A DNA stretch of 64,000 bases from Escherichia coli. Its GTDB lineage: Bacteria; Pseudomonadota; Gammaproteobacteria; Enterobacterales; Enterobacteriaceae. Below the pieces are notes generated by a model. The model saw nothing but the letters and a program-made list of their open reading frames with translations, did no database searches and was not told the origin of the DNA. The position numbers and the translations under genes were made by a program. The stretch lies in the NCBI RefSeq assembly GCF_048403405.1, contig NZ_CP183129.1. One strand, written 5' to 3'. Shown here piece by piece: positions 2,596 to 53,711 of this stretch (its first letter is position 1; each line of letters opens with the position of its first letter).

Positions 2596-4236
2596 TCACA
2601 CTGTAGCGAAACTAACTGGTTCACCCGCTCCGCGAGGTTCTGCCGACACAGAATGTTTGTTCAGACGGAATACGTCCACCGCCTCAGTTAATCGTGCCGC
2701 CTGTTCTTCAAGGGACACCGCCGCCGCTGAGGCCTCTTCTACCAGAGAAGCATTCTGTTGCGTCACCTTATCCATTTCAGAAATCGCCTGGCTAACCTGA
2801 GTTATGCCTCTGCTTTGTTCATCCGAGGCAGCGGCGATTTCCTGCATGATATGTGTGACACTCGCGACGGCATCAACAATAGTGCTCATGGTTTTCCCTG
2901 CCATTGCCACCTCATCCGACCCCAGGTCAATTAACCTGACTGATTCACTGATCAAGCCTTCAATCTCTTTCGTCGCCTGAGCGCTGCGGCTTGCGAGTGT
3001 CCGTACTTCGCTGGCGACAACGGCAAATCCACGCCCTTGCTCACCCGCTCGCGCGGCTTCAACGGCAGCATTCAGTGCCAGAATATTCGTCTGGAAAGCA
3101 ATACTGTTGATGACGGAAGTGATCTCGGAAATTTTCTTCGAACTCGTGGAGATAGCGCCCATCGTTTTTACTACACCGGAAACCGTCTGCCCGCCATCGC
3201 TGGCTTTAATAGAAGCCTCCTGCGCCAGTTTGCTGGCATGATGCGCGTTATCCGCATTCTGTTTCACCGTCGCAGTGAGTTGCTCCATGCTGGCGGCAGT
3301 TTGTTCAATTGCCGCCGCTTGTTCTTCGGTGCGAGATGACAGGTCCGCATTGCCAGAGGAAATTTCGCTGGTGCCACGATAAATCTCTTCCGCGCCCTGT
3401 CGAACGGTCCCTACTGTCATCCCCAGTGAATGCTGCATTTGCTGTAAATGACGACTTAAGCGACCGATTTCATTACGACCTGCCGGATCATCATTCATCG
3501 TCAGATCGCCACTGGCGATTTTTTCAATCCGTTGTGCGGCATGTTGCAGTGGACGAATGACGATCCGACGTAGCACTATAAATGTTATCAGCGTCATGAC
3601 CAGGGCAAGCACAAACGCGCCAATCATGAACATCCCACCCAGGCGGGTGCGCTGATGGGCCAGTTCCGCCAGTTGGTTGGCTCTGGTGCTACGTATCTTA
3701 ACGGCTTTGCTCAAAATATCGGTATAAGCATTATCCAGCGGTCGGATCTGCTCACTTTCATGATTGATAATCGCTTCAAACATGCCATTTTTGGCATATT
3801 TCAACATCGGTTGCATACCCGTGATATAAGCCTGGAAGCGTTGATTTAATTCAGTGTCGAGGGCTTCATCAGCAGGTGTTTTCACCGACCGATTCTGATA
3901 AGCACGATAACCTTGCTGCGACTGTTTAATCTCCGATTCGGCTTGCGCAATATTTCGCTTCATTGCTTCCATTTCAGCAATACGACTCGCAGCACCAGCC
4001 TGAATCATATTGATCCGGGCTGAACGCAAAAAATCTGAACTGTTCGCTAACCCGGTCCGAATCTCAATCTCCGCAGTAACATCACGCTGATCGCGATCGG
4101 CCTGCCAAAGGAAATAGCCGGCCAGGGCTGAACTTAATGCGAATAGAACTAAGATACCGCCAAGAATGCAGGCAAATAACGGAACCAGCCTGATGTGATG
4201 CAAAAAACCTAATCGCTGTGAGGGAGTTGTATTCAT
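2596..4236 (-). CDS. trg: methyl-accepting chemotaxis protein III (ribose/galactose sensor)
   Basis: 546 aa, two TM segments, conserved MCP signalling domain; synteny. Confidence 0.95.
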
Positions 4237-4302: not shown

Positions 4303-4611
4303 CGACCAAAAACCTCTTTGCGTCACATTTTTACAACAATTATGGCAGAGAAGAATAATGCCATTGGAATGAAGAGAGTAACGAATGATTAAACTGGCTA
4401 AACCGAATGACGAAAAATTCTGGAAAACAGCACGCAATTTCGTGAAGTGATTATTTTCGTCCCTAAGGAAACCTCATAGGATGCCTGCGGGTGCCTGAGA
4501 CTTTCTGTTTTCAGGCTAACCGGGAATCAGAAAGACGAAGGCCCCGACCGATATTTCTATCAACTGTACTGCACCCATTTTGTTGGACGATGAAATGGAA
4601 TAGCCCCTAAT

Positions 4612-5133
4612 ATGTCAAAGCCAAAATACCCTTTTGAAAAGCGCCTTGAAGTCGTGAATCACTACTTCACAACTGATGATGGTTACAGGATCATCTCGGC
4701 ACGTTTTGGTGTCCCCCGAACCCAGGTCAGGACATGGGTTGCCCTCTATGAAAAACATGGAGAAAAAGGTTTAATTCCCAAACCTAAAGGCGTTAGTGCT
4801 GATCCAGAGTTGCGTATTAAGGTCGTGAAAGCTGTGATCGAGCAGCACATGTCCCTTAATCAGGCTGCTGCTCACTTTATGCTTGCTGGTAGTGGTTCTG
4901 TAGCCAGGTGGCTGAAGGTCTATGAAGAGCGCGGAGAAGCTGGTTTACGCGCGCTCAAGATTGGCACCAAAAGAAACATTGCAATATCAGTTGATCCAGA
5001 AAAAGCGGCATCAGCATTGGAGCTGTCAAAAGACCGACGCATTGAGGATCTTGAAAGGCAAGTTCGATTTCTTGAAACGCGGCTTATGTATCTAAAAAAG
5101 CTGAAAGCCTTAGCTCATCCCACGAAAAAGTAA
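4612..5133 (+). CDS. insJ: IS150 OrfA (InsJ), HTH DNA-binding protein
   Basis: 173 aa MSKPKYPFEKRLEVVNHYF..., recognised as IS150 InsJ. Confidence 0.9.
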   Translation: MSKPKYPFEKRLEVVNHYFTTDDGYRIISARFGVPRTQVRTWVALYEKHGEKGLIPKPKGVSADPELRIKVVKAVIEQHMSLNQAAAHFMLAGSGSVARWLKVYEERGEAGLRALKIGTKRNIAISVDPEKAASALELSKDRRIEDLERQVRFLETRLMYLKKLKALAHPTKK

Positions 5134-5981
5134 AAGTACTCAACGAGCTAAGGCAGTTTTATCCTCTTGATGAGCTTCTCAGGGCTGCGGAGATACCGCG
5201 CAGTACGTTTTATTACCATCTAAAGGCTCTCAGCAAGCCTGACAAGTATGCGGACGTTAAAAAGCGTATTGGTGAGATTTATCACGAGAATAGAGGCCGA
5301 TACGGATACCGTAGGGTAACGCTGTCTCTTCATCGAGAAGGGAAACAGATTAACCATAAAGCTGTTCAGCGCCTGATGGGAACCCTCTCACTTAAAGCAG
5401 CGATTAAGGTCAAGCGATACCGCTCTTACAGAGGAGAGGTAGGGCAAACCGCCCCTAATGTTCTCCAAAGAGATTTCAAGGCTACGCGGCCAAACGAGAA
5501 GTGGGTTACCGATGTTACTGAATTTGCAGTCAATGGGCGCAAGCTGTATTTGTCTCCAGTAATAGATCTCTTCAACAACGAAGTTATTTCTTACAGCCTT
5601 TCGGAAAGACCAGTGATGAACATGGTTGAGAATATGCTCGATCAGGCATTCAAAAAGCTTAATCCTCACGAGCATCCTGTTCTGCACTCTGACCAGGGAT
5701 GGCAGTATCGTATGAGAAGATATCAAAATATCCTTAAAGAACATGGTATTAAACAAAGCATGTCCAGAAAAGGCAATTGTCTGGATAATGCTGTGGTGGA
5801 GTGTTTCTTTGGAACCTTAAAGTCGGAGTGTTTTTATCTTGATGAGTTCAGTAATATAAGCGAACTGAAGGATGCTGTTACGGAATATATTGAATACTAC
5901 AACAGCAGAAGAATTAGCCTGAAATTAAAAGGTCTGACTCCAATTGAATATCGGAATCAGACCTATATGCCTCGTGTTTAA
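5094..5981 (+). CDS. insK: IS150 OrfB (InsK) DDE transposase, expressed by -1 frameshift from OrfA
   Basis: orfB frame is open from 5076 with no canonical start before 5376; slippery heptamer A AAA AAG at 5094-5100; catalytic domain in 5376-5981. Confidence 0.85.
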
Positions 5982-6023
5982 CTGTCCAACTTTTTGGGGT
6001 CAGTACACAACCGAGGCCAACGA

Positions 6024-6231
<208 letters not shown>

Positions 6232-6302
6232 GGGCAAGCGCGGGGATTTTCCCCGCGCATCTGACTAGCAGATTCATTTTCTCATGGCACCCCTTTTACA
6301 CT

Positions 6303-6476: not shown

Positions 6477-6720
6477 ATAACCTCCATGGTTTATCGAATC
6501 TTATGTTCGATTTGAACGTTATACGCTGGTTTATTTTGATACCGTTGATGAGATCAAAGATCGGGCGAATTGATTAAAGATAAGCCAGATGGACGTATGG
6601 ATAAGGATTATGGTTTTATTTGTCATACAAATAAATATAATAGGCGCTTCCGATGTAGACCCGTATTCTTCGCCTGTACCACGGGTCGGTTTTAGTACAG
6701 GCGTTTTCTTTAAATATCCT

Positions 6721-7251
6721 TCAGGAACGTTTACGCGGCATCATGCGTAGAAGTGTGTTGTCCTTCCAGAAATAGTGGTGTGCCAGTGCAGCCGCAGCGT
6801 GCAACCCGATGACAAAATATCCCAGATTCGCCAGCATTTCATGCCACGACTTTAAGCTATCAACCCGTTCGAAATTGGCCTCTGATGCATAAGGCATCGT
6901 CAAACCAAACGCAAACCACGGGTTGCCTCGGTTATACATCATCACCAAACCAATCACTGGCAGCGCAATAAACAGGAGATAAATCACCAAATGTCCCAAA
7001 TGCGCCAGTCCCGTCATCATCGGTTTTGGCTTAGGTATAATCGGCGGGGTTGGGTATTTCAGCCTTAACAAAAGACGAACGACCATCAGCACGAGAATTG
7101 ATATGCCACAGGAAACATGAATCATGTTGATGAGTGGCCGATCGCTACGTGGGAAGAAACCCCGAAACTCCATTGCGCAATACGCTGCGATAACCAGCAT
7201 AAAGACCAGCCAGTGAATGCTGATTTGTAACCTTGAGTATTTATTTCCCAT
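6721..7251 (-). CDS. cybB: cytochrome b561
   Basis: 176 aa from MGNKYSRLQ; conserved His ligands in TM helices; start refined from the track ORF. Confidence 0.9.
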   Translation of the reverse strand: MGNKYSRLQISIHWLVFMLVIAAYCAMEFRGFFPRSDRPLINMIHVSCGISILVLMVVRLLLRLKYPTPPIIPKPKPMMTGLAHLGHLVIYLLFIALPVIGLVMMYNRGNPWFAFGLTMPYASEANFERVDSLKSWHEMLANLGYFVIGLHAAAALAHHYFWKDNTLLRMMPRKRS

Positions 7252-7439
7252 AACATTTCCTGCTTTAACATAATTTTCCGTTAACATAACGGGCTTTTCT
7301 TAAAATTTCATTAAATATTGTTCACCCGTTTTCAGTACGTTACGTTTCACGGCAAGAATGTAGATTGCCCATCCCGCCATCGTGGTCTAAGCCTGGAAAG
7401 GATCAATTTTCATCCGAACGTTCCTGACAGGAGAAGACC

Positions 7440-8441
7440 ATGAGTAAAGTTGGTATTAATGGTTTTGGTCGTATCGGTCGACTGGTGTTGCGTCGATTAC
7501 TTGAAGTCAAAAGCAACATAGACATTGTTGCTATTAATGATCTCACTTCCCCAAAAATTCTCGCCTACCTGTTGAAACATGATTCAAACTACGGACCGTT
7601 CCCCTGGAGCGTTGATTTTACGGAAGATTCACTTATCGTTGATGGAAAAAGTATCGCGGTTTACGCCGAAAAAGAGGCTAAAAATATTCCGTGGAAAGCG
7701 AAAGGCGCAGAAATCATTGTCGAATGTACTGGCTTTTATACCTCCGCCGAGAAATCGCAGGCGCATCTTGATGCTGGTGCGAAGAAGGTGTTGATTTCCG
7801 CCCCTGCCGGTGAAATGAAAACCATCGTTTATAACGTCAATGACGACACACTGGATGGCAACGACACCATTGTTTCCGTGGCGTCATGCACCACTAATTG
7901 TCTTGCACCGATGGCCAAAGCCTTGCACGACAGTTTCGGAATAGAAGTCGGCACGATGACGACCATTCATGCCTATACCGGCACTCAGTCACTGGTGGAT
8001 GGCCCGCGTGGTAAAGATCTACGCGCTTCACGTGCAGCGGCAGAAAATATCATTCCCCACACTACGGGGGCGGCAAAAGCCATTGGTCTGGTGATCCCAG
8101 AACTGAGCGGCAAACTGAAAGGTCATGCACAACGCGTACCCGTGAAAACCGGTTCGGTGACTGAACTGGTGTCTATTCTTGGAAAAAAAGTGACTGCCGA
8201 AGAGGTGAACAACGCGCTTAAAAACGCGACAAACAATAACGAGTCATTTGGTTATACCGATGAAGAAATAGTCTCTTCCGATATCATTGGCAGCCATTTC
8301 GGTTCGGTGTTTGATGCCACGCAAACCGAAATTACCGCCGTGGGCGATTTACAACTGGTGAAAACGGTCGCCTGGTACGATAACGAATATGGCTTCGTCA
8401 CGCAGCTTATTCGCACCCTCGAAAAATTCGCTAAACTCTGA
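7440..8441 (+). CDS. gapC: glyceraldehyde-3-phosphate dehydrogenase C (intact)
   Basis: 333 aa, NAD-binding GxGRIGR, active site [10 protein letters not shown]; uninterrupted frame. Confidence 0.9.
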
Positions 8442-53350: not shown

Positions 53351-53378
53351 ATGCACTGGATAAGGATTATCCAATTCT

Positions 53379-53483
53379 AAAAAAAAGCCCGGACGACTGT
53401 TCGGGCTTGTCTCATTATTTGTTGGATAAACAGTAACAAGGGTCCAACAGAAAATAATCTTTGTGACAATAAAGGCATATAAC
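53379..53483 (-). ncRNA. micC: MicC small regulatory RNA (ompC/ompD repressor)
   Basis: minus-strand 5' GTTATATGCCTTTATTGTCACA... and 3' terminator AAGCCCGAACAGTCGTCCGGGCTT plus T-run match MicC as I recall it; divergent from ompN. Confidence 0.75.
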
Positions 53484-53711
53484 CCGCGAAGAATAACGCA
53501 TCACTATTTAAATGTATAATTTTTATTTTGTATATGTCGCCAATAATATATTCACCAAACTTATCATCATTTCCGTAGAATTATTTGATTAAGGTTTTAC
53601 TTAAGGCGTAACAAATGATATTTATCGGCTAACGGAACTTCTCCTTTAGGATGTTTTCACTCCCCAAAATGGGGATGAAAAGGCAAATAAAATAACTAAA
53701 GGATTTATTCA

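Follow-up and report, generated by a model that had tools for sequence, protein, structure and literature searches.

The mRNAs of hok toxin genes typically pair through their two ends, with a 5' tac element complementary to a 3' fbi element. According to passages in two papers that cite Pedersen & Gerdes (1999), five hok loci of Escherichia coli K-12 owe their inactivation to IS elements, to point mutation or to rearrangement (PMC2654758), and in hokA, hokC and hokE the inactivating insertion elements lie close to the toxin ORF (PMC6733600). These passages back a first-pass annotation of the DNA studied here, which had called IS-mediated silencing a known fate of chromosomal hok loci. In an evolution experiment with E. 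coli B, five lineages acquired IS150 at trg/mokB, and IS150 was also found at the hokC, hokE and ldr loci (PMC5419217). Four hok homologues lie by insertion hot spots in natural E. coli isolates and two in Klebsiella pneumoniae, and an IS150 insertion in natural isolates was assigned to trg, possibly at a site other than the hokB leader (Durrant et al., bioRxiv 10.1101/527788). Our own literature search combining hokB with IS150 returned no match. The element in K-12 hokC and hokE is said to be IS186, as Pedersen and Gerdes reportedly described in 1999, and Schneider and colleagues in 2000 and Woods and colleagues in 2006 are said to have found IS150 in hokB/sokB in Lenski's long-term evolution lines.

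We analysed a stretch of 64,000 nucleotides of E. coli DNA (contig NZ_CP183129.1; the window), in which a complete IS150 interrupts the leader of hokB. The genomes nearest to the window are human and environmental isolates, and the window represents a natural-isolate lineage. The REL4536 lineages of the E. coli B experiment resemble it in carrying the same element in the same intergenic region, in independent repeats that were interpreted as inactivating a redundant toxin-antitoxin system; unlike the window, they are laboratory events in E. coli B, and their site is known only as a coordinate in that paper's own reference (PMC5419217). The hot spots of Durrant et al. are consistent with the 577 carrier genomes counted below, but were described without the anatomy of the junction, that is, the position in the leader and SokB, the 3-bp versus 4-bp duplications, and the orientation.

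The hokA paralogue of K-12 offers a comparison at the level of single bases. There, IS150 occupies the homologous position of the leader (ATCAAAGT/GAGGCC; hokB has ATCAAC/CGAGGCC), directly 5' of the conserved GAGGCC box. The element is the same (3 of 1443 bases differ between the annotated hokA copy and that of the window), and at both loci the sok gene is split and the hok frame is left intact. However, the hokA copy points the other way relative to hok and has no visible target duplication, and a 38-bp deletion takes the mokA start and the sokA 5' end, whereas in the window the insertion is clean, CAAC is duplicated and the putative sokB promoter is intact. The 38 bp absent from K-12 hokA, relative to the intact hokA of HH97, are GAGGCCCCTCTATGCATAGACACCATAAGGTTAGCCTC (K-12 hokA locus 1134-2612). 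The locus is split at the position of the K-12 hokA IS150 in about 2600 of 5425 genomes. Strain 81009 carries IS1 plus IS150 at the hokA position.

The analysis confirmed the presence of IS150 in hokB/sokB and supported the interpretation given to it in the first-pass annotation; the phenomenon itself is already known. Since the class of event, the locus and its behaviour as a hot spot have all been published, current understanding is unchanged. What is added here is the junction-level anatomy, a census that places the insertion in 10.6% of complete genomes, evidence for many independent insertions in a single orientation, and a testable minority hypothesis involving a chimeric SokB'.

The IS150 copy and its insertion site

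The element in the window has the length of IS150 group members (about 1443 bp) and, like them, starts with TG and finishes with CA (TGTACTG...CAGTACA). Its ends read TGTACTGCACCC at the start and GGGGTCAGTACA at the finish, and an inverted-repeat alignment showed the terminal inverted repeats to be imperfect (Table 1). The two transposase ORFs typical of IS150 are joined by a programmed frameshift, which RefSeq also annotates in identical loci, and the resulting OrfAB differs from that of K-12 by one residue, G221S. The 25-mer of the left end occurs once in the window, against 0 occurrences expected by chance, and this is the sole IS150 copy in the window. Judged by its sequence, the copy looks functional.

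Table 1. Coordinates in the window of IS150, the divided hokB/sokB regulatory region and adjoining genes
Feature	Position	Strand	Remarks
trg (methyl-accepting chemotaxis protein)	2596..4236	-	546-aa ORF; left neighbour; annotated trg in identical RefSeq loci
hokB mRNA leader, 5' 76 nt	4489..4564	+	RF01794; now detached from mokB/hokB; contains tac
tac element, 5'-terminal	4489-4501	+	pairs with 3' fbi
sokB, displaced 3' part	4564->4531	-	K-12 mapping; remaining terminator hairpin and U-tail
Target-site duplication CAAC, left copy	4561..4564		single CAAC in the empty sites of K-12 and CFSAN061763
IS150, complete	4565..6007	+	1443 bp; transposase co-directional with hokB; RefSeq name in identical loci: IS3-like element IS150 family transposase
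IS150 orfA	4612..5133	+	173 aa; identical to K-12 InsJ
Programmed -1 frameshift site A AAA AAG	5094..5100	+	yields 456-aa OrfAB, end at 5981
15-bp perfect hairpin inside IS150 right end	5930..5964	-	terminator scan and folds; followed by UUUUAAUUU on the minus strand
Target-site duplication CAAC, right copy	6008..6011		same empty-site comparison
sokB, retained 5' 27 nt	6034->6008	-	K-12 mapping; single-stranded recognition tail and start of hairpin arm; attached to the promoter
mokB	6024..6191	+	55 aa, intact; 2 aa differ from K-12 MokB
Putative sokB promoter, intact	6042..6070	-	-35 TTGCCT 6070-6065, 17-nt spacer, -10 TAACAT 6047-6042
hokB toxin ORF	6082..6231	+	49 aa, intact; 1 aa differs from K-12
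fbi element, hokB mRNA 3' end	6279..6293	+	complementary to tac, -21.8 kcal/mol (RNAduplex)

The left flank finishes with ...TATCAAC and the right flank opens with CAACCGAGG. We compared these with two empty sites, those of K-12 and of strain CFSAN061763, the flanks of the latter having 0 mismatches to the window over 300 bp on the left and 1000 bp on the right. Because both empty sites read TATCAACCGAGG, the target duplication is the 4-bp CAAC. This agrees with the short (3-4 bp) duplications of IS150, which took the form of CAAC here and of AAC in 563 other genomes. IS150, a member of the IS3 family, transposed into hokB/sokB at TATCAAC^CGAGG and duplicated CAAC. Between the window and strain TUM14771, which carries an identical locus, on one side and the carrier strain 144 and the empty-site strain CFSAN061763 on the other, 36 SNPs were found, the first of them 1146 bp rightward of the site (cybB-gapC; window 7150-8400); all are identical nearer the insertion site, which suggests a recombination boundary about 1.1 kb from IS150.

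To the right of the element, a 16-bp spacer (6008-6023) precedes the mokB ATG at 6024, and 74 bp separate the end of IS150 from the hokB ATG. The toxin gene has the features of a hok gene, with a small hydrophobic Hok ORF and an overlapping mok ORF, and is annotated as HokB by RefSeq; the same protein, WP_001309484.1, is the RefSeq HokB of TUM14771 and of CFSAN061763. The first-pass annotation had described a complete 1443-bp IS150 with intact termini, both transposase frames and the A AAA AAG site, placed between trg and mokB/hokB and 16 bp upstream of mokB, with intact hokB and mokB frames and a CAAC/AAC direct repeat taken as a target-site duplication. The mapped coordinates and the ORFs that we read agree with each of these points, and the comparison with two empty sites fixes the repeat as CAAC.

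The junction in the hokB leader and SokB

The junction was placed by transferring the K-12 annotation to the window and by matching Rfam family RF01794. The match fell into two parts, 4489..4564 (model positions 1 to about 84) and 6008..6087 (about 84 to 157). The 5' half reached 72.4 bits, against a gathering score of 59, and the 3' half alone scored only 43.7 bits because IS150 splits the model. As the consensus of RF01794 ends in the hok Shine-Dalgarno sequence and AUG, the family in practice models the sense-strand hok leader, and the split at 4564/6008 therefore means that the hokB mRNA is cut at about +76. This position falls between two helices of the hok leader. As expected of a hok mRNA, the leader is structured and the 5' end (tac) is complementary to the 3' end (fbi) in the window, and the native hokB promoter with the first 76 nt of the leader now lies 1.45 kb upstream of mokB/hokB.

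In K-12, sokB is annotated as a 57-nt RNA, antisense across the mokB start (2620..2676 of the K-12 locus sequence). The native fold of SokB consists of a single-stranded 5' tail of 16 nt, a terminator hairpin and a U-tail, and IS150 sits after nucleotide 27 of the 57, in the 5' arm of the terminator hairpin. A contiguous Sok RNA with its own promoter and terminator was accordingly not found in the window: the gene is split into 27 nt and 30 nt and the hairpin is broken. The putative promoter that remains attached to the 27 nt was recognised by reading the bases that precede the annotated sokB 5' end and scored below the threshold of the consensus scan. Alignment to the uninterrupted locus thus places the junction inside both RNAs, as had been proposed from the window alone, and the toxin ORFs are indeed parted from their native promoter. 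The further proposal that sokB was cut off from most of its body stands as regards the split, but not as regards its extent, since about half is lost (30 of 57 nt, with the terminator hairpin), and the promoter and 5' tail stay beside hokB.

The sequence GCCTCG within IS150 (5968-5973) is complementary to the conserved leader box CGAGGC (6012-6017), and in predicted folds of both strands this pairing displaces the native partner of the box. The complementarity is probably coincidental.

Recurrence of the insertion and its probable consequences for hokB control

We searched complete E. coli genomes for the interrupted locus. IS150 with both flanks at the hokB position was present in 577 of 5426 genomes (10.6%, about one in ten), and the hokB locus was uninterrupted in 4491. 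By their junction-spanning 54-mers, 563 carriers have an AAC duplication and 14 have CAAC; six of the CAAC carriers are identical to the window. All inspected IS150 insertions had the transposase co-directional with hokB. In the genomes searched with a synthetic junction, the inverted-orientation junction was not found; the 606 partial matches to it were left junctions of normal orientation, from carriers and some of their derivatives. If the 11 events argued for below are independent and orientation is random, the two-sided probability of this bias is about 0.001.

Classes of recurrence were drawn from 17 inspected interrupted loci, and the number of events given here is a count of these classes, not one from a full phylogeny. 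The AAC duplication occurred in four flank haplotypes that were 18-36 mismatches per 1500 bp apart, with two IS150 variants, and the CAAC duplication in three. Strains E20 and EC17GD31 carried a divergent IS150 (16 SNPs, 1.1%) with an extra TG at the left junction. In FT130 the element had a CCG duplication and was inserted 2 bp downstream, and in 2022S01-140 it had a GCC duplication and lay at the very 5' end of the hokB mRNA, about 70 bp off; KK19-02 had a rearranged allele. Flanks of the K-12 type (<=2 mismatches per 1500 bp) included empty, AAC, CCG and GCC alleles, and in the E189 and E20 classes flank SNPs were seen as near as 10-15 bp to the junction. The varied junctions and haplotypes, the empty alleles and the near-junction SNPs argue for many independent insertions, some 11 events if every combination of junction type and haplotype is taken as one. 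In the haplotype of the window, CAAC and AAC carriers have the same IS variant and near flanks in common and differ by 36 SNPs from 1.1 kb to the right; the two duplications could here be related by a 1-bp indel instead of a second insertion. As judged from these genomes, IS150 in hokB/sokB is a recurrent and widespread hot spot and not a strain-specific event. Insertions of the IS1 family were seen in the same hokB region in strains E143 and 2011EL-1370-2, and elements besides IS150 therefore land here.

Decayed and deleted alleles were also present. About 29 genomes (606 minus 577) had the left junction without a full IS150. One of the derivatives matching the left junction, FDAARGOS_497 (NZ_CP033850.1, locus about 1790-1830), retains an IS150 scar, the first 20 nt of the left end after TATCAAC, fused at a TGTT microhomology with leader sequence lying 35 nt downstream, with deletion of the mokB start and the sokB 5' end. 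In HM670 (locus 2047-2602) the region from trg to the N-terminus of hokB is lost, and the last 444 bp of trg are joined to a truncated hokB; judged by their flanking genes, deletion strains of this type look like phylogroup B2. In KA0011 and 18AR0845 (locus 422-892), IS150 occupies the hot spot and the neighbouring trg is truncated in the same way as in the trg-hokB deletion strains. Roughly 270 genomes, an estimate from a spread sample, matched the distal third of the locus only.

We consider it quite probable that IS150 has repeatedly and independently hit the hokB leader, splitting the mRNA and SokB, and that normal control is lost as a result. The normal hokB mRNA would then no longer be made, nor would normal SokB, whose promoter and 5' tail are kept and whose terminator hairpin is lost; with neither RNA makeable, the coupled programme of folding, processing and antisense control of hokB/sokB would be broken. 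We infer that silencing of hokB is the most likely outcome, or failing that an uncoupling from normal control, in line with hokA, hokC and hokE of K-12; with these the hokB locus shares an element near, and not in, the hok frame that disrupts the regulatory region. Against silencing stands the finding that the hokB and mokB frames were intact in every carrier inspected, and a functional antisense RNA could still arise from the retained sokB promoter with its 27 nt of antisense sequence. HokB has reportedly been linked to persister formation in K-12, by Verstraeten and colleagues in 2015. If about 10% of sequenced E. coli are without normal hokB/sokB control, this matters for extrapolating results from K-12 to clinical lineages. 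The insertion is, besides, convenient for marking lineages, and would provide a natural case of one mobile element repeatedly disabling a toxin-antitoxin locus.

A single ancient insertion, spread by descent or recombination, might have produced the same distribution, and most carriers (563) do have one AAC junction; within one haplotype, moreover, the window class has its IS variant and its near flanks, which are identical, in common with the AAC class. We nevertheless regard this as highly improbable, and as largely refuted already, because the junctions vary (AAC, CAAC, TG plus AAC, CCG and GCC), the IS150 variants are up to 16 SNPs apart and yet K-12-type copies are near-identical across flanks that diverge by 2%, the E189 and E20 classes have flank SNPs within 10-15 bp of the junction, some empty sites belong to the very haplotypes that carriers have, and IS150 insertions have been seen experimentally at the locus (PMC5419217). 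Repeated insertion could, alternatively, reflect a target-site and orientation preference of IS150 alone, the insertions being neutral since chromosomal hokB adds little fitness. Such a preference would predict what was seen: one trinucleotide is the target in many backgrounds, with the element always facing the same way, five experimental lineages share one coordinate of insertion, and in hokA the homologous position is occupied. However, IS families with different target rules are also found beside hok genes, IS1 at hokB in E143 and 2011EL-1370-2 and, reportedly, IS186 in K-12 hokC and hokE being examples, and IS150 itself also inserts 2 bp and about 70 bp away. Moreover, four hok homologues adjoin insertion hot spots, which points at least in part to selection or tolerance. 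Preference alone is therefore unlikely as the whole account, though it is compatible with repeated disruption of the hokB leader and the two are not exclusive.

The orientation bias may indicate instead that the locus is rewired and not dead, with hokB expressed by read-through and still repressed by an antisense RNA of about 113 nt, a SokB'-IS150 chimera. Sense transcripts would come from IS150 or from the upstream hokB promoter, and the sokB promoter would read into IS150 and stop at 5930-5964. The hairpin there is formed by a 15-bp inverted repeat without mismatches, close to the 3' end of orfB in IS150; it is followed by UUUUAAUUU on the minus strand, has no U-tract on the plus strand, and looks like a terminator for transcripts coming in from the sokB promoter and the right end. 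Among the retained parts are the putative sokB promoter and 27 nt of SokB with its single-stranded 5' tail in full, and the predicted fold of the 113-nt RNA leaves the 5' tail free and has two strong hairpins (z = -5.8). The terminator scan found no intrinsic terminator on the plus strand of IS150, and transcription starting at the hokB promoter or at that of the transposase could therefore read through into mokB/hokB. A consensus scan of the plus strand across 5950-6080 found no promoter-like site directed outward at the IS150 right end, and we do not propose an outward promoter there. In the rewired arrangement only the observed orientation of IS150 would supply a replacement terminator, which would explain the bias, and hokB was intact in every inspected carrier, with one orientation across all junction classes. 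However, the idea comes from computation only, the hairpin has a weak U-tract, and terminator-like sites are as frequent in the region as in shuffled sequence (2 found, 1.9 expected). The model is also not general, because IS150 in K-12 hokA has the opposite orientation and its 38-bp deletion took the sokA 5' region, and the later loss of the mokB start or the whole locus in some carriers resembles decay. We thus consider rewiring quite improbable, and are more doubtful still that the one-way orientation is functional in the sense that IS150 donates a stem and terminator to SokB, read-through gives a low level of hokB mRNA, and the pair persists in dependence on the element. Were this so, only the co-directional orientation of IS150 would be viable or favoured, and the toxin-antitoxin pair would be rewired, not silenced.

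Other features were noted in the window. A full-length Rfam match to the sRNA RydC (92.5 bits; 6647-6710, plus strand) lies between ydcA and cybB, as in K-12. Weak Rfam matches to SNORA29 and mir-15, both far under their gathering scores, were rejected as chance. Full-length matches above the Rfam gathering scores were obtained for the sRNAs MicC (53371-53486, minus strand), STnc490 (58873-58996, minus strand) and FnrS (59009-59126, minus strand). The gene gapC (type I glyceraldehyde-3-phosphate dehydrogenase; 7440-8441, plus strand) is an intact ORF of 333 aa in the window; it is a pseudogene in K-12 and carries a frameshift or internal stop in several other inspected genomes.
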